Below are positions 1,991 through 57,470 of a stretch of 64,000 bases of DNA, in pieces. Under the pieces are notes generated by a model. It was given only the letters and a program-made list of their open reading frames with translations. It had not been told where the DNA came from and did not search any database. The translations under genes were made by a program, and so were the position numbers. Positions within the stretch are counted from its first letter, which is position 1; each line of letters begins with the position of its first letter. This DNA comes from Escherichia phage RCS47. The stretch lies in sequence record NC_042128.1. One strand, given 5' to 3'.

Positions 1991-2044
1991 GCAGTTTTTG
2001 TCAACTACGAAGACGTTGCCATTACTTAACTCCTTGACATCATT

Positions 2045-2070
2045 GGCGGCCATTAGGCCGCCTTTTTTTT
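2045..2070 (+). terminator. GC hairpin plus T8 tract immediately upstream of ref ATG (terminator/attenuator-like)
   Basis: GGCGGCC-ATTA-GGCCGCC followed by TTTTTTTT, ends 5 nt before ref start. Confidence 0.5.
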
Positions 2071-2075
2071 GCCAT

Positions 2076-2636: not shown

Positions 2637-2825
2637 TAAATATATTATTTTTAATCTGAAATAATTGACAACTGACAAGTGACTTCAGTCAGAATCATCA
2701 CATGCCCGGTACGGATGGATCCCTTTTCAAATATTCCATGGACGGCACAGTCTGAGTACCGGGCGCTACCTTCAGTTGTATTGCTAAGCCGCCGCTGGTG
2801 GCTTTTCTTTTTTGTAGGGGGCGCT

Positions 2826-3467
2826 ATGGATAAGAAAATATGCGTTGTTTCAATGAGCGTCGGCAAACCGGCGTCAATGACTGCTGCATGGATCAACAAT
2901 GAGCTGATAATGGCTGAGCGGACCAGCTACCCTGAACGCCGCCGCGATATGGAACTCCAGCTGCTGCGCGAATTGCGAGAAAAAGAGGAAAAGGGTTTTA
3001 TCGTGCTGGTGGAAGAGGAAAACAGCTTTATTACTGGTCGAGTTGGCCAGCGTGTAAGGTTGCGCGATCCCTTCATGAACGGCAGGCCGGTACTGATTGA
3101 AGCAATGCAGATTTACAAGGAGCTGGAACGCCAGAAAGCGATCAAGTTACCGCGCAAGGAATCCGGCAAATACATCCTCCACCAAAGCATCTTCGATTCC
3201 GAACACGATAAAAAAGGCGATGAATTTTTCAACATCAACTGGAGTGAAATAACGACAGAGCATGTTCTGACGTTACTATGTTGCTTTGCGACGGAATACA
3301 ACAACGTTGCCAGCGCCGACTACATCAGGGCAATGGCTGGAGAAGTTGAGGCCCGCCAGGAACCATCGTTACTAAGCCCTCTGATTAACATAATTCGCGG
3401 AACCCAAACACTGGCGCAAAAACAAGTACCACGAGGGGAATTGACGGGTAAAGGTAATTATCTCTGA
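2826..3467 (+). CDS. Mat-like protein (by synteny after ref)
   Basis: ATG at 2826 preceded by GGGGG; 213 aa; position matches P1 mat. Confidence 0.5.
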   Translation: MDKKICVVSMSVGKPASMTAAWINNELIMAERTSYPERRRDMELQLLRELREKEEKGFIVLVEEENSFITGRVGQRVRLRDPFMNGRPVLIEAMQIYKELERQKAIKLPRKESGKYILHQSIFDSEHDKKGDEFFNINWSEITTEHVLTLLCCFATEYNNVASADYIRAMAGEVEARQEPSLLSPLINIIRGTQTLAQKQVPRGELTGKGNYL

Positions 3468-3506
3468 AAGATGCCCGGCGACAGACCGGGCAAAAGGGCG
3501 GAAAGT

Positions 3507-3755
3507 TTAATCAGCATTCAGGAGCAATGCGTTATCTATGATGATCTGCTCCCATTCTTCGAATGCCCGATCGCGGACGCCCTGGGGAACACTGTTAGTT
3601 TTGAAATCGACGACCGTACGCCATTTCCCGTCCGGACGGTACATGCGCAGAGCTTTACTTCCCCCTTCCCTGCGCACCTCAACGTTATGCTTGTCAGCAA
3701 ACTCTTGTAATGCTCGTAGCGTCCCATGCTTTACTGTGTAGTATCGCTTTTTCAA
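3507..3755 (-). CDS. lxc: Lxc/Bof C1 co-repressor
   Basis: 82-aa product MKKRYYTVKHG...; TTG start overlapping upstream stop; last gene of darB-ulx-lxc operon. Confidence 0.6.
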   Translation of the reverse strand: MKKRYYTVKHGTLRALQEFADKHNVEVRREGGSKALRMYRPDGKWRTVVDFKTNSVPQGVRDRAFEEWEQIIIDNALLLNAD

Positions 3756-4192
3756 GTTTTCTCTCCAGCCTGTGCCAAGGCTTCAACTTCCAAATCGTAA
3801 GACTCAAACTCATAGTCCTGGTCGTCAACTTCTTCAGGCACTGGCAGTAAATGCCAGGCTGAGTATATCTGACCATTATCAAAACGCTCCTGGCTGTAGA
3901 GCGTCGCGGCTATGAGTGTTAGCGCCGGGCGGTCATAACGGTAAATTTTGCGAACGTCACGGTCAACGAGACGACCGAAATTACCATAACCGCGCTCCAG
4001 TAATAATTTTTTAATTTCCGGCCAGTATGGGCCATAGCTGCGGTACAGGCGGGGATTTTTCAGTAATCGCCCGCGTAGCCCTGACAGGAAGAAATCAACG
4101 TATTCGTCTTCTGTCTTTCCTAACAATGCCGTACGCAGTACCGCCTCAAGATATGTTTTATTCGGTTTTATTGTATCAGATAGTGTGGCCAT
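3752..4192 (-). CDS. Ulx-like protein (upstream of lxc)
   Basis: 146-aa ORF, ATG start, between darB and lxc. Confidence 0.45.
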   Translation of the reverse strand: MATLSDTIKPNKTYLEAVLRTALLGKTEDEYVDFFLSGLRGRLLKNPRLYRSYGPYWPEIKKLLLERGYGNFGRLVDRDVRKIYRYDRPALTLIAATLYSQERFDNGQIYSAWHLLPVPEEVDDQDYEFESYDLEVEALAQAGEKT

Positions 4193-4225
4193 ATTATGCG
4201 ACGCCCGGCGAACCGGGCGCTCCTG

Positions 4226-11059: not shown

Positions 11060-13790
<2,731 letters not shown>

Positions 13791-13795
13791 CCATC

Positions 13796-13828
13796 AAAAA
13801 TAACCCCGGCGGCTGCCGGGGTTCTCGT
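13796..13828. terminator. bidirectional hairpin terminator between pro and lyz operons
   Basis: CCCCGGC-GGCT-GCCGGGG flanked by A5 and TTCTCGTT. Confidence 0.5.
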
Positions 13829-13834
13829 TAACTA

Positions 13835-14089
13835 TTATCGCCTTCGTCTGCGTGCCATATATTTGCGCACCGCGCGACGTGGGCAATCTGAAGCGGTTTC
13901 TTTCTGCTGCATCAATCTTGCAGCCATGCTCAAAAATGTCAGGCACAGCCGAAGCCCGGCATATAATAGCGGTTCCAGTGGCCACGTCTCATTGAGCACA
14001 TATACCGCCATGAAAATCGAGTCGAAAACTATCGCCGCGAGCGATAACTTCATTGTCGAAAGTCGGCGGAGCTGCCGGAGTTTATTCAT
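13835..14089 (-). CDS. small membrane protein translationally coupled to lyz
   Basis: 84 aa, two hydrophobic segments and Arg-rich C-terminus; ATG overlaps lyz stop. Confidence 0.35.
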   Translation of the reverse strand: MNKLRQLRRLSTMKLSLAAIVFDSIFMAVYVLNETWPLEPLLYAGLRLCLTFLSMAARLMQQKETASDCPRRAVRKYMARRRRR

Positions 14090-14639
14090 TGACCAGTCCC
14101 GTCAGGCAAAGCTGGCGTTCTTTTTCACGGCGAATCTTTAAACCTCGCAGGGGCACGCCGTTACTGTTCACGAAATCAGGGAGATGGTTACACATATTCA
14201 CCCATTCCCCTTTCTGCGCCCACTTGTGGATGGACGTTTCTACTCGCATGCCTCGCGCTTTGCTGTAGTAGGTCCGTAAGCTATTGCATCCCATATTGAA
14301 TGCCGCGCTTGTCATTGCACTGAAGGCATTATCGGGCATGTCTTTGCCCCGGAAGTGCTGATTAATACAGCGTTCAGCGATCAGGATATTCTTTTCCCAA
14401 TCAGCGGCGATTTGCTGGTCGGTTTTTCGCACACCCGGCGTTACCCCGTGTGTATTACCGATCCCGTCAGTCCATACCCCCGCCGGGCACATGTATGGAT
14501 CACGTCGGCAACCTTCAGCGTTACCAATCAGCTCAAGCCCCGCCTGGTTGGTTCGCACATTGCCATTACCCATCACGATGGTAATCATCACCGCGATAGC
14601 GCAAATTGCACCGCCTCCTGCGGCTGTTTTTCCCTTCAT
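14082..14639 (-). CDS. lyz: Lyz endolysin with N-terminal signal-anchor-release domain
   Basis: 185 aa from ATG at 14637-14639; MKGKTAAGGGAICAIAVMITIVMGNG... followed by lysozyme-like sequence. Confidence 0.85.
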   Translation of the reverse strand: MKGKTAAGGGAICAIAVMITIVMGNGNVRTNQAGLELIGNAEGCRRDPYMCPAGVWTDGIGNTHGVTPGVRKTDQQIAADWEKNILIAERCINQHFRGKDMPDNAFSAMTSAAFNMGCNSLRTYYSKARGMRVETSIHKWAQKGEWVNMCNHLPDFVNSNGVPLRGLKIRREKERQLCLTGLVNE

Positions 14640-14772
14640 AAAGACCTCATAAGCGAATTTTTTACGCTCCAGGACAAACACTCATTCACAGCCAATACCG
14701 ACTGACTCGATCCCTTTAGAAGGCACAGGATAATGCAAATCACTTGTTAGCCACGTTTCAAAGATATACATT

Positions 14773-15297: not shown

Positions 15298-15494
15298 ATG
15301 TGTAAAAAACGACTGAAAGAAAAGCGGTGGTCCAGACGCCGACAAAAGCACGAACTCGCAAACAAACGCCAAAGTTGGCAATGGCACACGCTTTTCACGA
15401 AAAGAACACCCCGAGATATTGCGTTCGCTGGTGGGAAAACATTCCTGCCCCACCTGAAGGCGCAATACATCAGGTTTTAAGCAGAGGAAAGACT

Positions 15495-15946
15495 ATGAAT
15501 AACATGACAACGAAAGAGCTTTTGACGGCACTTCCAAAATACAAAAGCCATAAAACAGTTCGCGCCTCAAAAATCAAAGATATCGAAATTATCGCCCTAA
15601 TGGATGTGGTCCTTTTTTGCAACATCGAAGTCGTTGAGCCAGAAGGGGTAAAAGTCCATGTTGATAAAATATTTTTGCAAAAACACCGACCAGAAATTGG
15701 CGGATATCTGGTCGCTTATGAGGACGGATCTCTGTCCTATTCACCAGAAAAAACATTTGAAGAAGGCTTTAGTCGGACTAACGACTTCTTCGAAAATGGG
15801 GTATCGCTCAGCATTGAAGGTCACAATGGGGTGACATTCATTACAGCCAGGGACGTAACTATTTCTGCTGGCGGTATCGCTACTCTACAAGAAGAAATCG
15901 ACCTTGAAGCAGCCGACTTTTCTGACGCGCTGATGTGGCTGAAGGA
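15495..15946 (+). pseudogene. 5' part of a phage gene interrupted by the IS26 unit
   Basis: ORF from ATG 15495 runs in frame into the IS26 left end; its continuation is found after the second IS26 at 25584. Confidence 0.65.
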
Positions 15947-16766
15947 GGCACTGTTGCAAATAGTCGGTGGTGATAAACTTATCATCCCCTTTTGCTGATG
16001 GAGCTGCACATGAACCCATTCAAAGGCCGGCATTTTCAGCGTGACATCATTCTGTGGGCCGTACGCTGGTACTGCAAATACGGCATCAGTTACCGTGAGC
16101 TGCAGGAGATGCTGGCTGAACGCGGAGTGAATGTCGATCACTCCACGATTTACCGCTGGGTTCAGCGTTATGCGCCTGAAATGGAAAAACGGCTGCGCTG
16201 GTACTGGCGTAACCCTTCCGATCTTTGCCCGTGGCACATGGATGAAACCTACGTGAAGGTCAATGGCCGCTGGGCGTATCTGTACCGGGCCGTCGACAGC
16301 CGGGGCCGCACTGTCGATTTTTATCTCTCCTCCCGTCGTAACAGCAAAGCTGCATACCGGTTTCTGGGTAAAATCCTCAACAACGTGAAGAAGTGGCAGA
16401 TCCCGCGATTCATCAACACGGATAAAGCGCCCGCCTATGGTCGCGCGCTTGCTCTGCTCAAACGCGAAGGCCGGTGCCCGTCTGACGTTGAACACCGACA
16501 GATTAAGTACCGGAACAACGTGATTGAATGCGATCATGGCAAACTGAAACGGATAATCGGCGCCACGCTGGGATTTAAATCCATGAAGACGGCTTACGCC
16601 ACCATCAAAGGTATTGAGGTGATGCGTGCACTACGCAAAGGCCAGGCCTCAGCATTTTATTATGGTGATCCCCTGGGCGAAATGCGCCTGGTAAGCAGAG
16701 TTTTTGAAATGTAAGGCCTTTGAATAAGACAAAAGGCTGCCTCATCGCTAACTTTGCAACAGTGCC
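15947..16766 (+). mobile_element. IS26 copy 1
   Basis: 820 bp, ends GGCACTGTTGCAAA ... TTTGCAACAGTGCC. Confidence 0.92.
16010..16714 (+). CDS. tnpA: IS26 transposase
   Basis: 234 aa [35 protein letters not shown]... Confidence 0.95.
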
Positions 16767-17421
16767 TTTCGCCCTCATCCGGTTCATGACGGTCGGGCAG
16801 GGAGGCAATCTGAATATGGCGATACTGGCCGGCATATTCGGTAATAAGATGGCTTAAATTGCCGTCCACCTTCTGCGCGTGAAACAGATCTAACTGCACC
16901 GCCAGGTTCGGCCTGTCGACCCGTTTCACCATCGCCAGCGTCTGATATTGACTGTGGTAGAGATAGCCCGGTTTGGTCTGCGGATTCAGCGCTTCGATGA
17001 GTATCCGCTTGTCGTGGCGGGCAAAGCACTCCGCCGCGTAGCGCAGATTATCGATAAGCACGGCCTCGCAGGCTGCGCGATCCGCTCCCGGCGGCACCAC
17101 GCCGGCCATGATATGCACCTGCGGGCAACCGAGCTGGCAGGCATACTCCAGCGCCAGCTCAATATCGCGTCGGGCCTCCGCGCTTCTCCCGGGGATGGCG
17201 GCGAGCCCCCATTCTCCGGCGTTGACGTCGCCGGGTGGGGTATTGAACAGCACCAGCTGCAGCTGGTTCTCCTGCAGGCGCTGTCTGATTTCCCCGGCGG
17301 CATACTCATAGGGAAACAGAAACTCAACGGCTTCAAATCCCGCCCGGGCAGCGGCGGCAAAGCGTTCCAGGAACGGCAGTTCGGTAAACAGCATGGATAA
17401 ATTTGCAGCGAATTTTGGCAT
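16767..17421 (-). pseudogene. ygbM: ygbM-like hydroxypyruvate isomerase family gene, 3' end truncated by IS26
   Basis: N-terminal ~218 aa intact, reading frame continues into IS26. Confidence 0.65.
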
Positions 17422-17425
17422 GGTT

Positions 17426-18046
17426 TTATCTCAGTTCTTTTACTTCGTCAGCGGTCAGGTAGCGGATCTCGCGGTTGCCGAGGGTAAATATCAGCCGTGC
17501 GGTCTCTTCCAGTTCCTCGGTATTGTTGGTGGCTTCGCGCAGCGATGAGCCAGTAACCACCGGTCCGTGGTTGGCCAGTAAAAAGGCGTTATAGCGGGGC
17601 GCCAGCCCGGCCAGCGCCTGGGCAATACGGTCATCGCCCGGCCGGTAGTAGGGAACCACCGGGACGTCGCCGACGCGCATCACCACATAGGGGGTAAAGG
17701 GGCGGATACAGTTGTGCGGATCGAGCCCCTGCAGGCAGGAGAGCGCGGTCAGATAGTGGCTGTGCAAGTGGACGATCGCCTTGCAGGCCGGGTTGTGCAA
17801 ATAGACTGCCCGGTGAAAAGTGACCTCTTTCGACGGTTTGTCGCCGGAGATCCATTCTCCTTGCAGCGTCACCACCGACAACCGCTGAGCCTGCAGTTCG
17901 CCGAGGCAGGCGCCGGTCGGCGTCGCCAGCAGGTTGCCGTCCGGCAGCAGCAGCGACAGATTGCCAGCGGAGCCGGTGGCATAGCCGCGGCTAAATAACG
18001 AGGCGCCAATCTGCACCATTTCCTCTCGCAGTTGTTGCTCAGTCAT
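17426..18046 (-). CDS. ygbL: class II aldolase/adducin family protein (YgbL-like)
   Basis: 206 aa from ATG 18046; part of ygbJKLM-type operon. Confidence 0.65.
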
Positions 18047-19304
18047 GACGAAACTCCTGCTGGGCACGGGCAAAGAACTGGATATCGCCGAAGTTACCTG
18101 ACTTCAGCGCCAGGGAGAGCGGCTGGCGGGTGTCACGCACCCAGGGCACGCCAGGGGAGATGGTCGGCCCAATATGGAACGCCTCAACCCCCAGGGTCTG
18201 CGCCACAATGCTCGACGTTTCCCCTCCGGCCACAATAAAGCGGGTAAATCCTTTCGCCTTCAGGGCGGCGGCAAGAGCGGCAAACAGCTGTTCCACCCGT
18301 TCGCTGCTGGCCTTGTCGCCATACTGCGCCTGGATCCGCTGCAGCGTTTGCGGCTCGGTGGTGGCATAGATCATCGGCGCCAGCGGCGCATCGCGCTGCG
18401 CGTCCACCCAGTCAGTCAGCGTCCTGACGTAGCTCTCCAGATCGGTAAAGCAGGCGCTTAAGTCGACGGCGCGGGCGGGGGCCTGTTGACGATAGGCCGC
18501 CACCTGGCTGTTGGTCATCACCGAGCAGGAGCCCGAGAGCACCACCGCCGGGCCGACCAGCGGCATGCCGGCCTGAGCGCTTTCACCCCGGGCGCCATGG
18601 CGCTGCGCCAAGTCGCGGGCGAGGCCGATGGCGAGGCCGGAACCGCCGGAGACCAGCTTCATCTCCCGCAGCGCCACGCCCTGGGTGAGCAGATCCTGTT
18701 CGCTGAGGGCGTCGAGCACCACATAGCGCACCGCCGGATCGTTGACTGCCGCCAGCGCGGCGGCGACCGCCTCCGGCCCCCGGGCGACAATCGGCCAGGC
18801 AATCAGCGCGGCTTTTCCGCGCCCCTGGCGCTCAATTAAGCGGCCCAGGTGCGCATCCTCCATCGGCGTCACCGGATGGTGGCGCATCCCGGACTCATTC
18901 AGCAGTTGCTCGCCGACGAACAGATATCCCTGATAGACCGTGCGGCCGTTAACCGGCAGCGCCGGGGAAATCACCGTCCGCGTCTCACCCAGCTCGGCCA
19001 GCAGGGCATCCAGCACCGGGCCAATGTTGCCCTGCGCGGTGCTGTCGAAAGTGGAACAGTACTTGAAATAAAACTGCTGACAGCCCTGGGCCTGCAGCCA
19101 GCGCAGGGCCGCCAGCGACTGGCTGACGGCCATTTCCGCCGGGCAGGAGCGAGTTTTCAGGCTGATGACCACCGCCTCGCTGGTCAGCGGAAGATCGCGG
19201 GTCGGCACGCCATTCAGTTGCACCGTCGGCATGCCGTTGCGCACGAGGAAGCTGGCAATATCCGTGGCGCCGGTGAAGTCATCGGCAATGACACCAAGCT
19301 GCAT
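18039..19304 (-). CDS. ygbK: four-carbon acid sugar kinase family protein (YgbK-like)
   Basis: ~421 aa; operon context. Confidence 0.6.
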   Translation of the reverse strand: MQLGVIADDFTGATDIASFLVRNGMPTVQLNGVPTRDLPLTSEAVVISLKTRSCPAEMAVSQSLAALRWLQAQGCQQFYFKYCSTFDSTAQGNIGPVLDALLAELGETRTVISPALPVNGRTVYQGYLFVGEQLLNESGMRHHPVTPMEDAHLGRLIERQGRGKAALIAWPIVARGPEAVAAALAAVNDPAVRYVVLDALSEQDLLTQGVALREMKLVSGGSGLAIGLARDLAQRHGARGESAQAGMPLVGPAVVLSGSCSVMTNSQVAAYRQQAPARAVDLSACFTDLESYVRTLTDWVDAQRDAPLAPMIYATTEPQTLQRIQAQYGDKASSERVEQLFAALAAALKAKGFTRFIVAGGETSSIVAQTLGVEAFHIGPTISPGVPWVRDTRQPLSLALKSGNFGDIQFFARAQQEFRHD

Positions 19305-19315
19305 GTTGTCTCTCC

Positions 19316-20218
19316 TCACTGTTTATGGCCCGGCAGGGTGATGCCGTTGAAAATCTTGATCACCGCGCTGTCATCTTCCCGACCGAATCCGGCATTACTG
19401 GCGGAGGTGAACATATTCAGCGCGGTGGTAGCGAGCGGCAGCGGGAAGGTCAGCGCCCGGGCAGTGTCATTCACCAGCCCGAGATCTTTGACAAAAATAT
19501 CGACAGCGGATTTTGGCGAGTAATCGCCATCCAGGACGTGCTGCATGCGATTCTCAAACATCCATGAATTACCCGCCGCGTGGGTGACCACGTCATACAT
19601 CGTTTCGAGTGGGATCCCGGCGCGGGCGGCAAGCGCCATCGCTTCGGCGGCAACGGCGATGTGCACCCCGGCCAGCAGCTGATGGATAATTTTTACCGTC
19701 GAGCCAAGACCAATGTCGCTCCCTATGCGGTAGACTTTGCCGGCCACGGCGTCCAGCACCGGCGCGAGGCGGGCAAAGGCGGCATCGCTCCCGGAGGCCA
19801 TCACCGTCATGTCGCCGGCGGCCGCTTTCACGGCGCCGCCCGATACCGGCGCGTCGAGCATCAATAGCTGGTACTCCGCCAGCGCCTCGGCAATGGCCTG
19901 AGCATCGGCGGAAGCGATGGTGGACGACACCATCACGACGGTGCCCGGCTTCAGATGGGCGGCGAGGCCGCTCTCGCCGAACAGGATCCCCCGCACCTGG
20001 GCGGCATTGACCACCAGCAGCACAACTGCATCCAGTTCCGCGGCGAACGGCACCGCGCTGGGGCCCGCGCCATTGGCGCCCGCCGCCAGCAGTGCGCGAC
20101 AGTTGTCGGGATTGATGTCAACGCCCCAGGTGTTCAGGCCCGCCTGCAGGCAGGCGCGGGCGGCGCCCATGCCCATTGAACCCAGTCCAATCACGCAGAC
20201 GTTAGTGTGTGCAGCCAT
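19316..20218 (-). CDS. ygbJ: NAD-dependent 3-hydroxyisobutyrate dehydrogenase family protein (YgbJ-like)
   Basis: 300 aa; N-terminal GLGSMG Rossmann motif. Confidence 0.7.
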   Translation of the reverse strand: MAAHTNVCVIGLGSMGMGAARACLQAGLNTWGVDINPDNCRALLAAGANGAGPSAVPFAAELDAVVLLVVNAAQVRGILFGESGLAAHLKPGTVVMVSSTIASADAQAIAEALAEYQLLMLDAPVSGGAVKAAAGDMTVMASGSDAAFARLAPVLDAVAGKVYRIGSDIGLGSTVKIIHQLLAGVHIAVAAEAMALAARAGIPLETMYDVVTHAAGNSWMFENRMQHVLDGDYSPKSAVDIFVKDLGLVNDTARALTFPLPLATTALNMFTSASNAGFGREDDSAVIKIFNGITLPGHKQ

Positions 20219-20478
20219 GCTGGTCTCCTTGTGAACATTAGTTAATTAATGTGATTTAATGATAGAATAAAGCGTTATCATGTGAATTTATGTGAGAGTT
20301 ATCACGAATAACCCACATGAATATAAAAAATTCACAGGCGGAAAGAGGCTGCACAACGGCGATTCTTGCCCTAAAATAGCGTAAAAACAGCGGCAAAGCG
20401 CGATAACAACACCGGGTGTCGCCAGGGCCGTAGCCTGGGTGGTGACGCCTGGTGTGAAAAAATGGTAAGGGGAGAGCG

Positions 20479-21240
20479 GTGATTCCAATAGAACGACATC
20501 AGCGTATTTTAGCCCTGGTGGAGCAGCGTGGGGCGGTAAGCATTAACGAGCTGACGGAGATCCTCGGCGTGTCCCATATGACCATCCGTCGGGACGTCAG
20601 TAAACTGGAGGAGCAGGGGCTGCTGGTCAGCGTCTCGGGCGGCGTGCGCGCCGTCAGCCGGCTGGCTGCGGAACCCAGTCATCTGGTGAAAAGCACGCTG
20701 CAGAGTGAGGAGAAACAGGCGATCGGCGCGCTGGCGGCGAGTCATATCGCTAAAAACAGTTGCATCTATCTGGATGCCGGGACTACCACCCTGGCGCTGG
20801 CGCGGGCGATCCTCGACCGGAACGATCTCCAGGTGGTCACCAATGATTTTGAGATAACCCAGCTGCTGATCGATGCCAGCCAGTGCGGCGTGATCCACAC
20901 CGGCGGCACTCTGTGCCGGGAGAACCGCTCCTGCGTGGGCGAATCGGCGGCGCGTACGTTACGCCACCTGGCTATCGATACGGCCTTTATCTCCGCCAGC
21001 GGCTGGGACAGTCGCGGGATATTCACCCCTGATGAGAACAAGGTTACCGTCAAGGAGACCGTCAGCCAGGTCAGCGCGAGAAGCATCCTGCTGTGCGACA
21101 GTTCGAAATACAATCAGGTGGCCACGTTTATGGCGTTACCTTTGACCCGGTTCACCACCATCATTACCGACCGGCATCTTTCCGATGCCGCCGCCAGTCA
21201 TATCGCCCGGCACGCCTGCGAGGTGCTGCGGGCCGGATAA
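20479..21240 (+). CDS. ygbI: DeoR family transcriptional regulator (YgbI-like)
   Basis: 253 aa; N-terminal HTH then sugar-binding domain; divergent from ygbJ. Confidence 0.7.
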   Translation: MIPIERHQRILALVEQRGAVSINELTEILGVSHMTIRRDVSKLEEQGLLVSVSGGVRAVSRLAAEPSHLVKSTLQSEEKQAIGALAASHIAKNSCIYLDAGTTTLALARAILDRNDLQVVTNDFEITQLLIDASQCGVIHTGGTLCRENRSCVGESAARTLRHLAIDTAFISASGWDSRGIFTPDENKVTVKETVSQVSARSILLCDSSKYNQVATFMALPLTRFTTIITDRHLSDAAASHIARHACEVLRAG

Positions 21241-21260
21241 CGCGCGCGGCCACCGCCGGG

Positions 21261-22121
21261 TTAGCGTTGCCAGTGCTCGATCAGCGCCGCGCCGATCCCG
21301 GCGATTTGCTGATTTCGCTCGGCCATGCTCGCCGGGGTATCCCGCAGATAAATCACCACAATGCGCTCTGCTTTGTTATTCGGGCCAAGCAGGGCGACAA
21401 TCCCGCGCGCACCCCGCTCGCTAGCTCCGGTCTTATCGGCGATAAACCAGCCCGCCGGCAGCACGGAGCGGATCAACGGTCCGGCGACCCGATCGTCCAC
21501 CATCCACTGCAGCAGCTGCCGTTGCGAACGGGCGCTCAGACGCTGGCTGGTCAGCAGCTTGCGCAGGGTCGCGGCCATGCTGGCCGGGGTAGTGGTGTCG
21601 CGGGCGTCGCCGGGAAGCGCCTCATTCAGTTCCGTTTCCCAGCGGTCAAGGCGGGTGACGTTGTCGCCGATCTGGCGCAAAAAGGCAGTCAATCCTGCGG
21701 GGCCGCCGACGGTGGCCAGTAGCAGATTGGCGGCGCTGTTATCGCTCATGGTAATGGCGGCGGCGCAGAGTTCGCCGACCGTCATGCCGTCGGCAAGGTG
21801 TTTTTCGCTGACCGGCGAGTAGTCCACCAGATCCTGCTGGCGATAGTGGATCTTTCGCTCCAGCTGTTCGTCACCGGCATCCACCCGCGCCAGCACTGCG
21901 CCGCAGAGCACTACTTTAAAGGTGCTCATCATGGGAAAGCGTTCATCGGCGCGCCAGGCGGTCAGCGTGCGGCCGCTGGCCAGATCCATTTCTATCATGC
22001 CTACGCGGCCCGACAGCTGGCTTTCGCTTAGTTTAATTTGCTCAAGCGGCTGCGGGCTGGCGTGTACCGCCAGCGGCAGGGTGGCTAACAGGGAGATAAT
22101 ACACAGGCGAATATAACGCAT
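21261..22121 (-). CDS. blaSHV: SHV class A beta-lactamase, Ser238 variant (SHV-2-like, extended-spectrum)
   Basis: 286 aa [21 protein letters not shown]...; [11 protein letters not shown] with AGC (Ser) codon at Ambler 238, Glu240, Leu35. Confidence 0.93.
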
Positions 22122-22397
22122 AACCACAATACATCCTTGAGTGAGGGCCGATAAAGGCGAGTAAAGAAGCGACAAATAAGAATAACCCGGCGTTTTGCTG
22201 ATTCACAATTCCTCTTTTTTCCTTCATCATTTTTCATCTTTTATTTCGAATAATCAATATCTAGCCCTGCCTAAGCACGCTATTTTTTGACTCAAGGCCG
22301 TGATGAACTATAAGAAAGTACTAAATACCGCACTCTGTCGGGCGTCGCTGTTTGCCGATCACCACGCCCGCCGGTCCCTGCGGTTCGCCAACGCTAT

Positions 22398-22679
22398 ATG
22401 CCATCCCGGGAGGAACTGGTGCACCCGATAATTAAGGTCATGCTGGTGGGCGGTAAGGCGGACGGGCTGTTGGTCAGCGTCGCCGATGACGCGACCGAAG
22501 TCTCGGTGACGCCTGCGCAGTACGGTGCGCTATCCGGGCAATCGTTGAGCTACCGAATTGTTAGCCAAACCATTGACGATGAACGCTATTTTTTTGGCGT
22601 TTTCAGCGACGCCCATCAGGATAGCGATAAGCTGACGCGGGTCGCCCTGACCCGTGGAATGAAAAAAATGTTCTGTTAA
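22398..22679 (+). CDS. hypothetical small protein upstream of recF-like ATPase
   Basis: 93-aa ORF, no recognisable motif. Confidence 0.3.
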   Translation: MPSREELVHPIIKVMLVGGKADGLLVSVADDATEVSVTPAQYGALSGQSLSYRIVSQTIDDERYFFGVFSDAHQDSDKLTRVALTRGMKKMFC

Positions 22680-22765
22680 ACCCTGCCCGAAAGGGGGCGT
22701 AAGAGGGTATGCCGGGCGCCGCTGTGCTACTGTGGCAGCCTTCTATTTCCAGGGCCGGACGCATA

Positions 22766-23854
22766 ATGATTCAGTACATTCGTATTCAAAATTTTCGCTC
22801 AGTAAAGGATATCGCGCTGGAGCTCGGGCCGCTGAACATTGTCTTCGGCCCTAACGGCTGCGGTAAATCCAATATTTATAACGCCATCCACCTGCTGACC
22901 GCTGCCGCTGAGGGCAGGCTTTCGGGGTTTATCAGCGAAGAGGGCGGTCTGGAGAATATGATGTGGTCCGGGGAGCGTTCGCCCCTCGATCGTCACCCCC
23001 GCCGGCTGCAAATCGCCTGCCGGACCGACAGCTTCGATTATGAACTGCAGATAGGCTTCCCTGAAAAATTGCCCTATCCGACGCAATTCATGCTCGATCC
23101 TATCGTTAAAGAAGAGAATATCTGGCTGGCCGGCTACTCCCGCCGGCCTTCCTCCCGCGTACTGCAGCGCAAGAATCAGGCGGCGTTTCTCGTCGATGTC
23201 ACCGGGGAGAAAAGTACTTTCACCGAGAGTATTTATGAAAATGAGTCGGTGTTCGGTCAGCTTGGCGAGCCGCACCGTTTTCCCGAAGTATCGCGAGTGC
23301 GGGAGACGCTGCGCCGTTGGCGGTTTTATCATGAATTCGCGATTGGCCGTCATTCGCCACTGCGTCAGCCGGCCGTGGGTTACCGTTCGCCAGTCCTCGA
23401 CAGCGATGGCCAGAATCTCGCCGCCGCCTTTCAGACCATTGTCGAGATCGGCGCGGAGGAGATTTTGCATGAAATCCTTGCCGACGCCTTTCCCGGCTGC
23501 CAGTTTTATTGTGAAAACGAGCACTCGCGTTTCGCTCTGAAAATGCGTCGCGAAGGGATCCGCCGCCCGCTGCTGGCGGCGGAGATGTCCGACGGTACGC
23601 TGCGCTTTTTGTGCCTCGCCGTCGCGCTGCTCAGTCCGCGCCCGCCGGCGTTTCTGGCGATCAATGAACCGGAGAACAGCCTGCATCGCGACATGTTGCC
23701 CGCGCTGGCCCGGCTGATTATCGAGGCCTCGCGCTACAGCCAGATCTGGCTGACCAGCCACTCGGCGGAGCTGGCGGAGCTTATCGCCGCCGGGGCGCCT
23801 TGTCAGCGCTATGCGCTGGAGAATCGCGGCGGTGAGACGCGGATTGTCGAGTGA
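22766..23854 (+). CDS. RecF-like AAA family ATPase
   Basis: 362 aa from ATG 22766; MIQYIRIQNFRS, Walker A GPNGCGKSN, C-terminal LAINEPENSLH. Confidence 0.7.
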   Translation: MIQYIRIQNFRSVKDIALELGPLNIVFGPNGCGKSNIYNAIHLLTAAAEGRLSGFISEEGGLENMMWSGERSPLDRHPRRLQIACRTDSFDYELQIGFPEKLPYPTQFMLDPIVKEENIWLAGYSRRPSSRVLQRKNQAAFLVDVTGEKSTFTESIYENESVFGQLGEPHRFPEVSRVRETLRRWRFYHEFAIGRHSPLRQPAVGYRSPVLDSDGQNLAAAFQTIVEIGAEEILHEILADAFPGCQFYCENEHSRFALKMRREGIRRPLLAAEMSDGTLRFLCLAVALLSPRPPAFLAINEPENSLHRDMLPALARLIIEASRYSQIWLTSHSAELAELIAAGAPCQRYALENRGGETRIVE

Positions 23855-23884
23855 AGCCCGTCATCCCTGACGGGGGCGCTGGAG

Positions 23885-24763
23885 TCAGGCGGGGCTCTGC
23901 GTCTCTGCGGTCGGCAGCAGACGGTTGCCGCCGCGTAGGGTGACGAACGAGAGCAGGGTGAAGCTCAGGGTTATGCAGCCGAGGATCAGATAGGCCTGAT
24001 GGAAGCCGACGGTGTCGTACATCCGGCCCACCCAGGCGGAAAGCACCACCCCGGACAGCTGTTTTGACAGATTAAAACCGATCAGGAACAGGGTGGCCGA
24101 GAGGCGCGGGTTAAAGGCGGAAGAGATATATTTAAAAGTTCCCACCAGCAGGAAGGGGATCTCAAACATATGCAGCATCTTGAGGATCACCACCTCGACT
24201 GCCGATGAGGCGAAGGACGACCCGAGAATACGCACCGACATGATCATCCCCGCGGTCAGCAGGGCGTTTTTGGCGCCGATGCGGTTAACGATGGCCGGCG
24301 CGCAGAACATGATCAGCGCGTTGAGCAACTCGCCGCCGGTGGTGACGAAGCCAAACACTTCGGTACCGCGCTGCGGACTGGCGAAAAAGCTTTTGAAAAA
24401 GTTGGCGAACTGCTGGTCAAACACGTCGTAGACGCTGGCGACACCCACCACATAGACGATAAAGCCCCAGAAGCGCGGCATACGCAGCAGCTCTGCCGCC
24501 GTACGCAGCGAAAAGGCCTGGCGATTGGCGCCCAGCGCCTCGATAACCTGGGCGCTGTTGCTGCTTTCCGGCCGCGACAGCCAGAGCAGCAGACCGAGCA
24601 CCAGCGCAAAGCCGGAGGCGATCCAGAAGGTGATATTGGGATCGATGCCGAACAGCACGCCGGTTATCGAGGCGCATAGCGCCCAGCCGACGCAGCCTGC
24701 GACCCGCACTTTGCCATATTCAAAGCGGTTGGCCCGGCTGACGCGTTCGATATAAGCTTCCAC
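23885..24763 (-). pseudogene. lacY: lacY lactose permease, 5' end truncated by IS26
   Basis: C-terminal ~290 aa of an MFS permease colinear with LacY (...FEYGKVRVAGCVGWALCAS...); frame continues into IS26. Confidence 0.8.
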
Positions 24764-25583
24764 GGCACTGTTGCAAATAGTCGGTGGTGATAAACTTATC
24801 ATCCCCTTTTGCTGATGGAGCTGCACATGAACCCATTCAAAGGCCGGCATTTTCAGCGTGACATCATTCTGTGGGCCGTACGCTGGTACTGCAAATACGG
24901 CATCAGTTACCGTGAGCTGCAGGAGATGCTGGCTGAACGCGGAGTGAATGTCGATCACTCCACGATTTACCGCTGGGTTCAGCGTTATGCGCCTGAAATG
25001 GAAAAACGGCTGCGCTGGTACTGGCGTAACCCTTCCGATCTTTGCCCGTGGCACATGGATGAAACCTACGTGAAGGTCAATGGCCGCTGGGCGTATCTGT
25101 ACCGGGCCGTCGACAGCCGGGGCCGCACTGTCGATTTTTATCTCTCCTCCCGTCGTAACAGCAAAGCTGCATACCGGTTTCTGGGTAAAATCCTCAACAA
25201 CGTGAAGAAGTGGCAGATCCCGCGATTCATCAACACGGATAAAGCGCCCGCCTATGGTCGCGCGCTTGCTCTGCTCAAACGCGAAGGCCGGTGCCCGTCT
25301 GACGTTGAACACCGACAGATTAAGTACCGGAACAACGTGATTGAATGCGATCATGGCAAACTGAAACGGATAATCGGCGCCACGCTGGGATTTAAATCCA
25401 TGAAGACGGCTTACGCCACCATCAAAGGTATTGAGGTGATGCGTGCACTACGCAAAGGCCAGGCCTCAGCATTTTATTATGGTGATCCCCTGGGCGAAAT
25501 GCGCCTGGTAAGCAGAGTTTTTGAAATGTAAGGCCTTTGAATAAGACAAAAGGCTGCCTCATCGCTAACTTTGCAACAGTGCC
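24764..25583 (+). mobile_element. IS26 copy 2 (direct orientation)
   Basis: 820 bp with same terminal IRs and identical transposase ORF. Confidence 0.92.
24827..25531 (+). CDS. tnpA: IS26 transposase
   Basis: identical 234-aa product. Confidence 0.95.
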   Translation: MNPFKGRHFQRDIILWAVRWYCKYGISYRELQEMLAERGVNVDHSTIYRWVQRYAPEMEKRLRWYWRNPSDLCPWHMDETYVKVNGRWAYLYRAVDSRGRTVDFYLSSRRNSKAAYRFLGKILNNVKKWQIPRFINTDKAPAYGRALALLKREGRCPSDVEHRQIKYRNNVIECDHGKLKRIIGATLGFKSMKTAYATIKGIEVMRALRKGQASAFYYGDPLGEMRLVSRVFEM

Positions 25584-25816
25584 TGAAGGATGGCAAGAAA
25601 GTTGCTCGACGCGGGTGGAACGGCGAAAACCAATTCTGCTGGCTGGTTCCTGAAGGACAGTACCCGGCACGAATGGAAGCCATTAAGGGATATTTCCCCG
25701 GCGACCTCGTTCCGTATGGTGCTTATTTCGCCTTAAAAAATGCACAAGGTGTAGTTGTTCCGTGGGTTCCTTCTGTAGGCGACTTACTGGCATGTGACTG
25801 GTTTGTAGTGGAGTGA
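25584..25816 (+). pseudogene. 3' part of the interrupted phage gene; DUF2829/Tad2-like domain
   Basis: (K)DGKKVARRGWNGENQFCWLV...PWVPSVGDLLACDWFVVE, in frame with 15495-15946 after removal of the IS26 unit. Confidence 0.6.
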
Positions 25817-25822: not shown

Positions 25823-26605
25823 GTGGAAAATACTAAAGCAATTCAATACCGCCTGCGTAATGGCCAGAGTGTCGAAGTGACCATCAATAATGATGGAGTA
25901 CCTGGCGAAAAGGTTTCTATCTCTGATCTGGCTATCGAAAAAACCATCATGTGCCACCTTGGCTTTACTGAAGAAGTGAGCAAAAAGCATGGTGTAGCAA
26001 TCTGGAGCGCAATGGATACTGGTATGCGCAAATTCATTACTGCTCGTACCCCAGGGATGACCATGATGGACCTCATGCAGATTGCGCCGCTGTTTGAATG
26101 TGAGCCTTTAGATGTATTCAGCAATCCAGCTATCTGCCAGCAGTTATATGGTGAGATGAAACTCGCGGTTACCCCCATTGTGCTGCATGAAGGATCGCTT
26201 GCTGGCGTGTGGAAAGTAGAGCGTATTTCAAGCTACATGCCTTTCCATGTCAACGGCGTAATCACTGGTGAAAATCAACCTGTTTCCGTTATAAAGTCAG
26301 ACCTCAAGCGCGCAATTCTTGAAGCAAGTTGTCGAGTTGTCGGCCTGGGCAAACAGTCTTATGTTTCCTTCCCGGCTGGCCCTGAAGGCCCGGCAGAAAT
26401 TCTGATCATGGATGCCGATCTGCTATGGCAAATACAGTTTCTGATTGGCAAAAGCATCATCCGCGCTGAAGAACTCGATCAGTACATTACCTGCACGATG
26501 ACGGATGAAGTCAAAAGTGTAGCTATAGCCAATGCCCGGAACCTATGTCGTGCTGCATTAACAGAATTGCAAGAAAACACCACGGAAGAAGTGGAAAGCG
26601 ATTAA
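25823..26605 (+). CDS. hypothetical phage protein
   Basis: 260-aa ORF, GTG start after GGAG. Confidence 0.45.
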   Translation: MENTKAIQYRLRNGQSVEVTINNDGVPGEKVSISDLAIEKTIMCHLGFTEEVSKKHGVAIWSAMDTGMRKFITARTPGMTMMDLMQIAPLFECEPLDVFSNPAICQQLYGEMKLAVTPIVLHEGSLAGVWKVERISSYMPFHVNGVITGENQPVSVIKSDLKRAILEASCRVVGLGKQSYVSFPAGPEGPAEILIMDADLLWQIQFLIGKSIIRAEELDQYITCTMTDEVKSVAIANARNLCRAALTELQENTTEEVESD

Positions 26606-26616
26606 ATGTATTAGCT

Positions 26617-27800
26617 CAGACCTGATCTGACAGTTACCGGTTATTTATACAGGTATCTGTCAGATTACATCTGGCTTAAATTTTTCTCGGCCCAGATGCG
26701 TTTTCCATCAAGTAACGTTTCCATTGGCGTACGCCCACAGCACATTTTTCCCTGATGAGTTCGCTCATTATTGTAATGCCACAACCACTTGTCCAGATCC
26801 ATTTGCAGGCTTTCCAGGTTTGTATATAGCTTTTTACGGAACGTAACCTGATAAAACTCCTGCAAAATGGTCTTATGGAAGCGCTCGCAGATGCCGTTCG
26901 TCTGCGGAGACATCGCCTTCGTTTTCGTATGGTCAATGTCGTTGATAGCCAGATACAACTGATAATCATGCTGCTCAACTTTACCACAGTACTCTGTTCC
27001 CCTATCGGTCATGATTCTCAGCATCGGCAGCCCCTGAGACTCGTAGAACGGCAGTACACGATCATTGAGCAAATCAGCTGCGGTGATCGGCGTTTTACTC
27101 GTATATAGTTTGCAGTGTGCCACTTTCGAGTACGTATCCACGAACGTCTGCTGATAGATACGGCCAACACCTTTCAGGTTGCCCACGTAGAAGGTGTCCT
27201 GTGACCCCAGATACCCCGGATGTGCCGTTTCGATTTCACCGTTGGCCTCATCATCCTGGGCTTTCTTTTCTAGCGCTGCGATTTGAGCGTCAGTGAGTAC
27301 GATCCCTTCTCTGGCGACTTTTTCTTCAAGTGCTTTCAGACGTTTACGGAAGTTCTCCAGGTCGTGTCGTTGCCAGATGGAGCGTACGCCGCTGCCGGAG
27401 ATAAATACGCCTTTCTTACGCAGTTCATTACTGGTCCGGTGCTGCCCATGAGCCGGAAACTCAATTGCGTACTCAACAACTGCACGTTCAGTCGCTTCAT
27501 CGACACGGTTCTTTATGTTCGGGACTCTGCGGTTCTGATTAACCAAAGCATCAATACCGCCTTCCTCAGCCAGTTCCTGATAGCGGTAAAATGTGTCGCG
27601 TGACACCCCCATGATTTTACAGGCTTTTGATACGTTACCGAGTTCTTCGGCGAGGTTGAGCAGACCGACTTTGTGTTTGATGATGGGATTGTTAGTATGA
27701 AGCATGAGAGTTACCTCGTGTTTTGTATAAGGATTAGACACCCATATCAAAACCGGTAACTCTCAACCTTTCAAGGCTCAGTGTCAGATCAAGTCGCGAC
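26617..27800 (-). mobile_element. IS481-family insertion sequence (boundaries approximate)
   Basis: single transposase ORF flanked by imperfect inverted repeats containing TGATCTGACA and GTTACCGGTT. Confidence 0.6.
26665..27705 (-). CDS. IS481-family DDE transposase (HTH plus rve integrase core)
   Basis: 346 aa from ATG 27705 after GAGGT; C-terminal ...SPQTNGICERFHKTILQEFY... integrase-core signature. Confidence 0.7.
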   Translation of the reverse strand: MLHTNNPIIKHKVGLLNLAEELGNVSKACKIMGVSRDTFYRYQELAEEGGIDALVNQNRRVPNIKNRVDEATERAVVEYAIEFPAHGQHRTSNELRKKGVFISGSGVRSIWQRHDLENFRKRLKALEEKVAREGIVLTDAQIAALEKKAQDDEANGEIETAHPGYLGSQDTFYVGNLKGVGRIYQQTFVDTYSKVAHCKLYTSKTPITAADLLNDRVLPFYESQGLPMLRIMTDRGTEYCGKVEQHDYQLYLAINDIDHTKTKAMSPQTNGICERFHKTILQEFYQVTFRKKLYTNLESLQMDLDKWLWHYNNERTHQGKMCCGRTPMETLLDGKRIWAEKNLSQM

Positions 27801-27811
27801 TAATACAGATT

Positions 27812-27837
27812 AAAAAAATCCCGCCGATTGGCGGGAT
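27812..27837 (-). terminator. rho-independent terminator ending the dar operon
   Basis: ATCCCGCC-GATT-GGCGGGAT followed on the minus strand by T7. Confidence 0.6.
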
Positions 27838-31139: not shown

Positions 31140-32477
31140 GCCTTATCCAATGTGCCGCCCCCTACGCTCCTCATAGTGGGGATATAAGGCACAGTTTTCC
31201 TCCCGGCTATTTTTGCTTAAAATAGTGACATGAAACAACAGGTGTCATTCAAATTCCGGTTAAAACCAGATGGTCAACAGGAGCGTCAAATGAGGCGCTT
31301 TGCCGGAGCTTGTCGTTTCGTTTTCAACCGTGCTCTGGCGCTTCAGAATGAGAATCATGAGGCCGGTAAAAAATACATCCCTTACACGAAAATGGCTTCC
31401 TGGTTGGTTGAGTGGAAAAAAGACACTGAAACCGAATGGCTTAAAGATTCTCCCTCACAGCCATTGCAACAGTCACTGAAAGACCTTGAGCGGGCTTACA
31501 AAAACTTCTTCCAGAATCGGGCAGCTTTTCCCCGATTCAAAAAGCGGGGACAGAATGATGCATTCCGCTACCCGCAGGGTGTTAAGCTCGATCAGGAAAA
31601 CAGCCGTATTTTTCTGCCGAAACTTGGCTGGATGCGCTACCGGAATAGCCGTCAGGTCACGGGTATTGTGAAAAATGTTACTGTCAGCCAGTCCTGCGGT
31701 AAGTGGTACATCAGTATTCAGACAGAAAGAGAGGTATCCACTCCTGTTCACCCTTCAGCATCAATGGTCGGACTGGATGCTGGCGTGGCTAAACTCGCCA
31801 CGCTGTCAGATGGCACAGTCTTTGAACCTGTAAATAGTTTTCAGAAAAACCAGAAGAAGCTGGCGAGACTTCAGCGACAGTTAAGCCGCAAGGTCAAATT
31901 CAGCAACAACTGGCAGAAGCAGAAACGCAAAATACAGCGACTGCATTCCCGTATCGCAAATATCCGCAGGGACTACCTTCACAAAGTCACAACGACCGTC
32001 AGCAAAAACCACGCAATGATTGTCATTGAGGATTTGAAGGTTAAATACATGTCAAAGTCAGCGGCGGGAACGATAAGTCATCCGGGTCGCAATGTCCGGG
32101 CAAAATCAGGTTTAAACCGTTCGATACTGGATCAGGGCTGGTATGAAATGCGCCGCCAGCTTGAGTACAAGCAGCTCTGGCGTGGCGGTCAGGTGCTTGC
32201 TGTTCCGCCAGCGTACACAAGCCAGCGTTGCGCGTGCTGTGGTCATACAGCGAAAGAAAATCGCCTGTCACAAAGTAAATTCAGATGCCAGGTATGTGGA
32301 TATACAGCGAACGCCGATGTAAACGGCGCTCGTAACATTTTAGCGGCGGGGCACGCCGTACTTGCCTGTGGAGGGATGGTGCAGTCAGGCCGCCCGTTGA
32401 AGCAGGAACCCACCGAAATGATTCAGGCGACAGCCTGAACGTAGCAGGAATCCACGCCCTTCGGGGCGTGGAGGATG
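31140..32477 (+). mobile_element. TnpB-only IS200/IS605-family element (boundaries approximate)
   Basis: tnpB ORF plus 3' hairpin CCACGCCC-TTCG-GGGCGTGG at 32452-32471; fills the ddrA-ddrB junction. Confidence 0.6.
31230..32438 (+). CDS. tnpB: TnpB RNA-guided endonuclease family protein
   Basis: 402 aa; [36 protein letters not shown]..., RuvC-like motifs and CxxC...CxxC zinc finger. Confidence 0.85.
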
Positions 32478-56139: not shown

Positions 56140-57470
56140 CAGCGAAAAACCGCCGAGAACCCTCGCCCAATGCGGGCGGGGAGGAAAGGCGGAAAAGCCC
56201 GAAGGGCTTTAAAAATATTATTACGGTGTTAGCATAAAAACCTGTACCAATGAGCGGTGACTATGTTAAGAGCAACAAAAGTACGCATCTACCCGACACC
56301 AGAACAGGCTGAATTTATCAACGCCCAGTTCGGTGCAGTGCGTTTTGTGTACAACAAAGCTCTGCATATCAAGAAACATTCTTACCAGCGGCACCGCGTA
56401 AATTTAAACCCGCGTAAAGACCTCAAACCACTGCTTGCAGTGGCGAAGAAATCCCGCCGGTATGGATGGCTTAAAGAATATGATTCTATTGCGTTGCAGC
56501 AGGCGGTAATTAACCTCGACGTGGCTTTTTCTAACTTTTTCAATCCGAAACTGAAAGCAGGTAAACCTACCTTTAAAAGTAAACACGGCAGACAATCTAG
56601 CTATCATTGTGTTGGCATAAAAGTCCTTGATGGTGCGATAAAAATACCGAAAATCTTGCCGATTGAAGCGCGTTTACATCGTGAAATTACGGGAATGCTG
56701 AAAAGTATCACGTTGAGCCGCAGCGCAACCGGGAAATACTACGCGTCGTTACTCTGTGACGACGGGATGGAAGCGCCGGCAAAGCCCGCACTGATATCAA
56801 ATGTGACAGGGCTGGATATGGGGCTGGCGCATTTTGTCATCAAATCGGACGGCAATAAAATTGCCAGTCCCCGCCACCTAATCAATGCAAGTCGCAACCT
56901 GCGCCGGAAGCAGAAAGCACTGTCCCGTAAGAAAAAAGGGAGCGCAAACAGGCGCAAAGCCAGAATACAACTTGCAGCCGTTCACGAACGGGTAGCCAGT
57001 GCCCGTGCCGATTTCCAGCACAAGTTATCTCGCGCAATTGTTGACGAAAACCAAGCGGTAATTGTCGAAACATTGAAAACGGCAAATATGATGAAAAATC
57101 ACCATCTGGCTCGTGCGATAGGCGATGCTGGATGGTCTGGATTCATCACAAAACTGGAATACAAAGCAACAGAGAAAGGTGTGCATCTGGTGAAACTGGA
57201 TCAATGGTTCGCCAGTTCGAAAACCTGCCACTGCTGCGGTCACAAAATGTCGGAGATGCCATTACATAAGCGCATCTGGCAGTGTCCAGAGTGTGGAGTT
57301 GAACATGACCGCGATATCAATGCGGCGCTCAACATCAAACGCAAGGGCATACTGGAATTACAAGCGGCGGGACTCGTCGTTTCTGCCCATGGAGGCCAGC
57401 GTAAATCCGTCACACAGACGGTTGCGGCTTAAGAAGTGGGAAGCCTCGCCCGACAGGGCGGGGAGCAGTC
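56140..57470 (+). mobile_element. second TnpB-only IS200/IS605-family element (boundaries approximate)
   Basis: near-identical hairpins CTCGCCC-N5/4-GGGCGGG at 56162-56180 and 57445-57462 bracket the tnpB ORF. Confidence 0.6.
56263..57432 (+). CDS. tnpB: TnpB RNA-guided endonuclease family protein (different subfamily from 31230-32438)
   Basis: 389 aa from ATG 56263; MLRATKVRIYPTPEQ..., C-terminal CHCCGH...CPECG zinc finger. Confidence 0.85.
   Translation: MLRATKVRIYPTPEQAEFINAQFGAVRFVYNKALHIKKHSYQRHRVNLNPRKDLKPLLAVAKKSRRYGWLKEYDSIALQQAVINLDVAFSNFFNPKLKAGKPTFKSKHGRQSSYHCVGIKVLDGAIKIPKILPIEARLHREITGMLKSITLSRSATGKYYASLLCDDGMEAPAKPALISNVTGLDMGLAHFVIKSDGNKIASPRHLINASRNLRRKQKALSRKKKGSANRRKARIQLAAVHERVASARADFQHKLSRAIVDENQAVIVETLKTANMMKNHHLARAIGDAGWSGFITKLEYKATEKGVHLVKLDQWFASSKTCHCCGHKMSEMPLHKRIWQCPECGVEHDRDINAALNIKRKGILELQAAGLVVSAHGGQRKSVTQTVAA

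Follow-up and report, generated by a model that had tools for sequence, protein, structure and literature searches.

Results

An IS26-bounded unit carrying blaSHV-2 in phage RCS47

The genome of Escherichia phage RCS47 (NC_042128.1) carries the resistance gene blaSHV-2 on a unit that is bounded by two copies of the insertion sequence (IS) IS26. We analysed 64,000 nt of this record, hereafter called the window, in which positions are numbered from the first letter. The full unit is 9,637 bp long and has the order IS26-(truncated ygbM)-ygbL-ygbK-ygbJ-ygbI-blaSHV-2-orf-AAA ATPase-(truncated lacY)-IS26, with a passenger of 7,997 bp (16767-24763) between the IS26 copies (Table 1). The two IS26 copies are the same at 820 of 820 bp, lie in direct orientation and end in perfect 14-bp terminal inverted repeats, GGCACTGTTGCAAA; both therefore have the size and the inverted repeats of IS26, a member of the IS6 family. 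Each copy encodes a 234-aa transposase that is assigned to the IS6 family (NCBIfam transpos_IS6, 275.6 bits against a cut-off of 125) and also matches Pfam DDE_Tnp_IS240. The IS26 DNA is base-for-base that annotated as IS26 on plasmid RCS70_p. Beyond the two full copies, no further IS26 fragments were found within the 64-kb window.

The arrangement is that of a pseudo-compound transposon: a direct IS26 pair surrounds the passenger, a target-site duplication lies outside the pair, and a unit with the same boundaries is present on unrelated replicons, as described below. The guanine plus cytosine (GC) content of the passenger is 60.7% compared to 48.6% in the remaining window, and every 8-kb segment of the backbone lies at or below 52.5%. 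Collectively, the results presented here make it very probable that the element is an IS26-bounded 'pseudo-compound' transposon with an 8-kb Klebsiella pneumoniae chromosomal passenger, and that it occupies the variable isaA/IS1 region of a phage-plasmid of the P1 family (Punavirus).

A preliminary description of this DNA had reported two directly oriented 820-bp IS26 copies with the same ends and transposase open reading frames (ORFs), a GC-richer cargo between them, the genes from ygbM to lacY, and end genes cut exactly at the IS26 termini. Our comparison gave 100% identity of the IS26 copies over exactly 820 bp, the GC contrast given above, the same gene list, including an 86-aa ORF, and ygbM and lacY remnants that end at the IS26 termini (Table 1). 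One label did not hold. The ATPase downstream of the 86-aa ORF had been called 'recF-like', but it scored 36 bits with the RecF model against a cut-off of 172, which rules out RecF identity; the protein is instead an AAA_21/AAA_15 ATPase.

Table 1. Positions of the IS26-bounded unit, its genes and neighbouring features in the RCS47 window.
Feature	Position	Strand	Description
5' part of interrupted gene	15327..15946	+	Codons 1-206; at the position of P1 isaA, 29 nt after ssb
Left target-site duplication copy	15939..15946		8 bp, CTGAAGGA
IS26 copy 1	15947..16766	+	820 bp, perfect 14-bp inverted repeats, tnp26 16010-16714; 100% identical to copy 2
Truncated ygbM/otnI (2-oxo-tetronate isomerase)	16767..17421	-	First 655 of 783 nt; NCBIfam OxoTetrIsom, residues 1-220
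ygbL/otnC (3-oxo-tetronate 4-phosphate decarboxylase, class II aldolase fold)	17426..18046	-	NF043034, 328 bits (cut-off 250)
ygbK/otnK (3-oxo-tetronate kinase)	18039..19304	-	NF043035, 589.8 bits (cut-off 350)
ygbJ/ltnD (L-threonate dehydrogenase)	19316..20218	-	NF043037, 472.9 bits (cut-off 350)
ygbI (DeoR-family repressor)	20479..21240	+	Top NCBIfam match YgbI, 379.6 bits, slightly under the cut-off of 400
blaSHV-2	21261..22121	-	286 aa; NCBIfam NF000285 SHV, 666.4 bits (cut-off 640)
86-aa hypothetical ORF	22419..22679	+	Annotated in RCS70_p; called in 8 of 8 chromosomal loci
AAA_21/AAA_15 ATPase	22766..23854	+	Pfam AAA_21, 103.9 bits; PADLOC HEC-01A, E 4.5e-54
lacY fragment	23885..24763	-	3' 879 of 1,266 nt; first 387 nt gone
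IS26 copy 2	24764..25583	+	tnp26 24827-25531; directly oriented with copy 1
Right target-site duplication copy	25584..25590		7 nt, TGAAGGA; CTGAAGGA in relatives
3' part of interrupted gene	25584..25816	+	Most of the Tad2-like domain
260-aa gene	25823..26605		
IS481-family element	26607..27807	- (transposase ORF)	1,201 bp; 361-aa transposase
TnpB-type (IS605 OrfB / Cas12f-like) ORF	31230..32438	+	Presumed from the TnpB call on a 99.98% identical contig (L099, GCA_965259255.1)
TnpB-type (IS605 OrfB / Cas12f-like) ORF	56257..57432	+	Pfam-confirmed; directly after kilA/repL-sized ORFs

The passenger is K. pneumoniae chromosomal DNA

To trace the passenger, an exact-protein look-up was made with the cargo aldolase, YgbL/OtnC, and led to large chromosomal contigs of Klebsiella type that encode exactly this protein. 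The gene order in these chromosomes is lacZ-lacY-AAA ATPase-86-aa ORF-bla-deoR/ygbI-ltnD-otnK-aldolase-ygbM-gntP. The 7,997-bp passenger aligned with eight chromosomal contigs over its full length, in the same order and at 99.3-99.5% identity; five of the eight alignments were ungapped and the other three had a single gap. Homology to all eight contigs stops exactly at both inner IS26 ends. On one side the break falls within ygbM, which encodes 260 aa when intact, and on the other within lacY, which encodes 421 aa and follows lacZ in the chromosome. The 41-54 mismatches between the passenger and the chromosomes are spread evenly across all genes. This is the pattern expected of divergence within a species and confirms a Klebsiella chromosomal origin. 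The counterpart of ygbI in RCS70_p is annotated as a DeoR/GlpR regulator.

The species was anchored through contig CP052569.1 (5.26 Mb), whose locus is 99.56% identical to that of the K. pneumoniae type strain, ATCC 13883. The next chromosomal bla relatives, in Raoultella, Enterobacter and Citrobacter, have at most 74% protein identity. The sequence comparison thereby confirms the passenger as K. pneumoniae chromosomal DNA that was cut at both ends by IS26. The unit is like the K. pneumoniae chromosomal locus in gene order and in sequence; in contrast to the unit, the chromosomal locus has no IS26, its ygbM and lacY are intact, and gntP and lacZ flank it. The preliminary description had recognised the blaSHV neighbourhood of Klebsiella, which the eight colinear contigs and the type-strain anchor substantiate. 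It had also named a non-Klebsiella source as evidence that would speak against it, and no such source was seen.

The resistance gene is the SHV-2 allele

The product of the bla gene scored above the cut-off of the SHV family (Table 1). Compared with SHV-1, it has a single change, from glycine to serine at residue 234 of the precursor, which is G238S in Ambler numbering. The G238S change corresponds to nt 21422, the sole coding nucleotide difference from the RCS70_p gene, which AMRFinder types as SHV-1. The top plasmid matches are typed SHV-2, and bla in the chromosomal loci compared is wild-type at residue 238 (position 21422). Judged by its sequence, the allele is SHV-2, which departs from SHV-1 by G238S only, and the blaSHV gene of the preliminary description can be refined accordingly.

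The 276 nt upstream of bla (22122-22397) have one mismatch to one of the chromosomal loci (L084), indicating that the native upstream region was kept. A promoter scan upstream of bla returned one weak match, which lies on the wrong strand and is no better than matches in shuffled sequence. The gene and the ssb operon, which C1 controls in P1, lie on opposite strands.

The unit is inserted in a P1-family backbone downstream of ssb

The sequences that flank the unit are contiguous in Salmonella phage SJ46 (98.6% identity) and in P1 (95%). Hundreds of E. coli phage-plasmids of ~90-100 kb match the left 16 kb of the window at 98-98.8% identity; their annotations include genes for portal, head processing, a DarB-type methylase and integrase/Cre. 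Similar P1-like matches were obtained for the right 24 kb, which covers tail, transglycosylase and related genes. The start of the window presumably resembles that of the P1 reference, a 343-aa ORF (436-1467) lying at what would be the position of cre in P1. Among 832 plasmid records that match the backbone, 744 are from Escherichia and 9 from Klebsiella. By nucleotide similarity and conserved synteny the backbone can be assigned to the P1-family (Punavirus) phage-plasmids, in agreement with the preliminary description.

The unit splits a gene. Removal of the unit together with 7 nt, one copy of the flanking repeat, restores a 281-aa ORF that has 99.4% DNA identity to J46_0048 of SJ46 and starts 29 nt past ssb, as isaA does in P1. 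The empty site in SJ46 reads GTGGCTGAAGGATGGCAAG. The flanking target-site duplication, on which the preliminary description was silent, is present.

To find relatives with the same junctions, we used an exact-protein look-up of the fusion ORFs that span them. One assembly, GCA_965259255.1, has both junctions, on contigs that end 127 nt inside IS26, and the Logan assembly of ERR14867558 (L101) has the right junction. At the right junction both assemblies read GTGCC followed by CTGAAGGA, compared to GTGCC followed by TGAAGGA in the window. The presence of 8 bp in two independent assemblies suggests that the true duplication is the canonical CTGAAGGA and that the window is without one C of a CCC run. 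On the same evidence a genuine 7-bp duplication by IS26 was rejected. That the record probably has a 1-nt error or deletion at this junction is new here. The C missing at 25583/25584 is probably either a sequence error or a real 1-nt deletion; a right junction reading GTGCCCTGAAGGA would mean an error in the record and one reading GTGCCTGAAGGA a real 1-nt deletion. The flanking duplication, the restoration of the target ORF on deletion of the unit and the recurrence of both IS26/backbone junctions in independent assemblies all support a real insertion, as had been claimed for this DNA.

The backbones around these junctions have diverged. The left contig of the relative has 26 mismatches to the window, none of which lies within 1 kb of the junction, and its arrangement further upstream differs; a 1,201-bp element of the window is absent from the right contigs of the relatives. 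Over the 1,009 bp next to the left junction the window and the relative are identical, which suggests that the window and its relatives descend from one ancestral insertion that was followed by recombination in the backbone. The right IS26/backbone junction was not found in 5,426 complete E. coli genomes, the 5,000 best-scoring PLSDB matches, the phage collection or the IMG/VR contigs, suggesting that the insertion is rare. New in the present analysis are these two further public assemblies, in which IS26 occupies this very site although the P1-like backbone has diverged.

P1 itself has an insertion sequence, IS1, at the same plastic locus just downstream of ssb, ~100 bp past isaA. It differs from the RCS47 unit in being another IS and in having no passenger genes, and a 684-bp deletion in P1 removes the very point at which IS26 sits here.

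The same unit is found on conjugative plasmids

The 9,637-bp unit, including both IS26 copies, corresponds to positions 1-9637 of RCS70_p (LT985275) with 2 mismatches. RCS70_p is an E. coli IncFIA/FII conjugative plasmid that carries the SHV-1 allele. The full-length cargo was detected at ~100% identity in 62 PLSDB plasmids, which are mostly from Klebsiella and include p1658/97 (NC_004998), with SHV-5. RCS70_p and p1658/97 share with RCS47 the 9.6-kb unit, the ygbM and lacY breakpoints and the gene order. They differ from it in their carriers, which are IncF or other conjugative plasmids and not phage-plasmids, and in their alleles, which are set apart by point mutations of the extended-spectrum β-lactamase (ESBL) type. 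MN626601 and LT985275, E. coli plasmids of ~91 kb that start with the unit, were considered as P1-like carriers and rejected, LT985275 being the IncFIA/FII conjugative plasmid described above.

The unit differs from its plasmid copies by 1-2 nt and from the eight chromosomes sampled by 41-54 nt, and the unit and the plasmid copies have both breakpoints in common to the nucleotide. This suggests that the phage-plasmid received a ready-made plasmid module. On these distances, the unit most probably came to the phage-plasmid from a plasmid and not directly from a Klebsiella chromosome. The nucleotide-level match to a plasmid-borne IS26-blaSHV module, 2 nt from that of RCS70_p, in place of a fresh chromosomal capture, is a further point that is new here.

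Alternative explanations

The segment could instead have been taken from the K. pneumoniae chromosome while the phage-plasmid resided in Klebsiella, with IS26 inserting there around bla. Such a capture would agree with the 99.3-99.5% identity of the cargo to K. pneumoniae chromosomes, and a few P1-like plasmids are indeed recorded in Klebsiella (9 of 832). However, many plasmids already have the whole unit, its two IS26 copies and two breakpoints included, at a distance of 1-2 nt rather than 41-54 nt, and the backbone is overwhelmingly an Escherichia/Salmonella element; we consider direct capture very improbable. We attach equally little weight to a repeat-mediated misassembly, in which a phage-plasmid with a single IS26 had the bla unit of another IS26 plasmid threaded between collapsed copies. 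In its favour, the IS26 copies form an exact repeat of 820 bp, many plasmids have the same unit, both of the independent junction assemblies stop inside IS26, and the difference of 1 nt at the right junction is a hint that the sequence may not be perfect. Nevertheless, the duplication flanks the whole unit, as it does for a genuine IS26-bounded insertion, and the window itself has no sign of a join artefact. The published structure of RCS47, as given in passages of two papers (PMC5011133, PMC12217456), likewise has a phage-borne bla between two IS26 copies.

Somewhat less remote, although still unlikely, is that the carrier is a defective P1 remnant, non-inducible and acting as a plasmid only, with the unit as inert cargo, in which case phage-mediated spread would not occur. 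At least five insertions of mobile-element type in the window (two IS26 copies, one IS481-family element and two TnpB ORFs) have added ~13 kb to a genome that is packaged by the headful, and the total size and the late genes lie past 64 kb. In contrast, the backbone genes of the window are long, intact ORFs with 98% identity to those of functional relatives, P1 is infectious with the interrupted gene deleted, and a passage of the literature treats RCS47 as a phage that spreads resistance via lysogenic infection (PMC12217456). The reading that we favour, a plasmid-derived pseudo-compound transposon in a P1-family phage-plasmid, has evidence weighing against it as well. The repA/parAB replicon and the total genome size lie beyond the 64-kb window, which bears on the integrity of the replicon and on the fit to the P1 headful. 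The duplication in the window consists of CTGAAGGA on the left and the 7-nt TGAAGGA on the right, whereas IS26 duplicates 8 bp. Finally, the two junction assemblies break inside IS26 and so prove the junctions but not the cargo between the copies.

Proposed acquisition and spread of the unit

We infer that IS26 activity transferred the unit to the phage from a plasmid in the same cell. By one route, a copy-in cointegrate would have formed with the donor plasmid and then undergone recombination between IS26 copies. By another, a lone IS26 would have inserted first, and a translocatable unit consisting of IS26 and the cargo would then have been added beside it through conservative, IS26-targeted insertion. 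Either route would lead to the observed structure. As the sequence shows, insertion of the unit in the backbone came with an IS26-type duplication, apparently of 8 bp, and split a gene that is presumably non-essential. In the lysogen, bla would be read constitutively from its own chromosomal promoter and the lysogen would be converted to cephalosporin resistance (lysogenic conversion). Packaging of the phage-plasmid and lysogeny in a new host would carry bla along. ESBL-bearing phage-plasmids offer resistance a route of transfer that is independent of conjugation, RCS47 being the textbook case.

Relation to published work and to comparable phage-plasmids

Phage RCS47 (FO818745 / NC_042128) was reportedly described from a clinical E. 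coli by Billard-Pomares et al. (AAC 2014). The finding is thus already known, RCS47 having been described in 2014 and widely cited, and the present analysis is a confirmation and not a discovery. Passages of the literature describe RCS47 as a P1-like phage with blaSHV-2 between two IS26 copies (PMC5011133, PMC12217456), and another passage places the acquisition of blaSHV-2 at the isaA-IS1 hot spot (PMC9603915). The window agrees with these descriptions on all four counts, namely the SHV-2 allele, the two IS26 copies, the P1-like backbone and the isaA-IS1 locus. The isaA-IS1-isaB segment is a variable region and an integration hot spot of P1-like elements (PMC9603915). IS6/IS26 elements adjoin most of the resistance genes in P1-type phage-plasmids (PMC9600943), and the IS26-blaSHV module has long been known, as has its derivation from K. 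pneumoniae (SHV review, PMC5011133).

Other P1-family elements resemble RCS47 in that their resistance genes were brought by transposable elements, often IS26. They include SJ46 with blaCTX-M-27, pTZ20_1P with a 40-kb IS26-bounded multidrug-resistance region, and JL22 with blaCTX-M-55, all of which differ from RCS47 in insertion site and cargo. They also include MH445380.1 ('P1 isolate transconjugant 2(L-II)', 126.5 kb), which has blaSHV-deoR beside IS26 (12001-14677), near ref/mat. The large multiresistance region that surrounds bla there also includes Tn3-family genes and a class 1 integron. The different site in MH445380.1 suggests that part of this Klebsiella segment was acquired there independently.

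The interrupted gene encodes a protein with a Tad2-like domain

The restored 281-aa gene product matches the Pfam Tad2-like family (PF11195) over residues 197-280, with 79.6 bits against a cut-off of 25 and coverage of profile positions 2-73 of 73. The domain, Thoeris anti-defence 2 / AcrIIA7 (formerly DUF2829), also matches the solved Tad2 structures 9eib and 8v3e over the whole chain (E ~1e-19). Stand-alone Tad2 proteins have ~90 aa, whereas the Tad2-like domain here is the C-terminal third of a 281-aa protein. IS26 cuts the gene at codon 206, ten residues into the domain.

The gene is also disrupted in other P1 relatives. In P1 (NC_005856, L092 3999-4006) the 684-bp deletion fuses the first 57 codons to the downstream gene, giving 'isaA'. 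Two contigs from metagenome or Sequence Read Archive (SRA) data (L095, 5299-6144; L097, 64-909) have a W204* nonsense mutation, two codons from the IS26 site, and a third contig (L096, 3522-6144) has an IS200/IS605 insertion, with TnpA and TnpB, near codon 228 of the Tad2-like gene. By these lesions the Tad2-like gene has been inactivated independently in several P1-family elements. According to a 2025 preprint, Tad2/AcrIIA7 is found in only 56% of P1-group phage-plasmids. The identification of the target of the unit as a Tad2-like anti-defence gene, inactivated recurrently in the P1 family, is also new here.

These observations allow a tentative proposal, to which we would give only a modest chance of being correct. 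The unit splits a candidate anti-Thoeris gene, and if its product were a gcADPR sponge, carriage of blaSHV-2 at this site would cost the phage the infection of Thoeris-bearing hosts; the recurrent lesions would then reflect selection and not just a mutational hot spot.

The C missing at the right junction has by chance put an 81-aa ORF, which starts at a TTG in the end of IS26 (25571), in frame with the remaining Tad2-like domain.

Other features of the unit and the window

The 86-aa ORF and the ATPase (22419-23854) come from the K. pneumoniae chromosome. The top match of the ATPase is the PADLOC candidate-defence family HEC-01A, and no match to the 86-aa ORF was found in Pfam or PADLOC. The two genes are possibly a candidate two-gene defence module that would travel with blaSHV on every replicon bearing the unit.

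A rare IS481-family element lies ~1 kb downstream of the unit, at the stop codon of the 260-aa gene and before a terminator hairpin. It has imperfect inverted repeats of 26 nt and a 7-bp duplication, GATTAAA, and is absent from all close relatives. Within the collection, E. coli strain MEW, from an ivory gull, is the sole strain with copies at 100% identity; other matches have at most 84% identity. The poly-A tract that follows the element (27808-27830) has 7 A here compared to 8 A in relatives, and is the second homopolymer-length difference near a mobile-element junction in the window.

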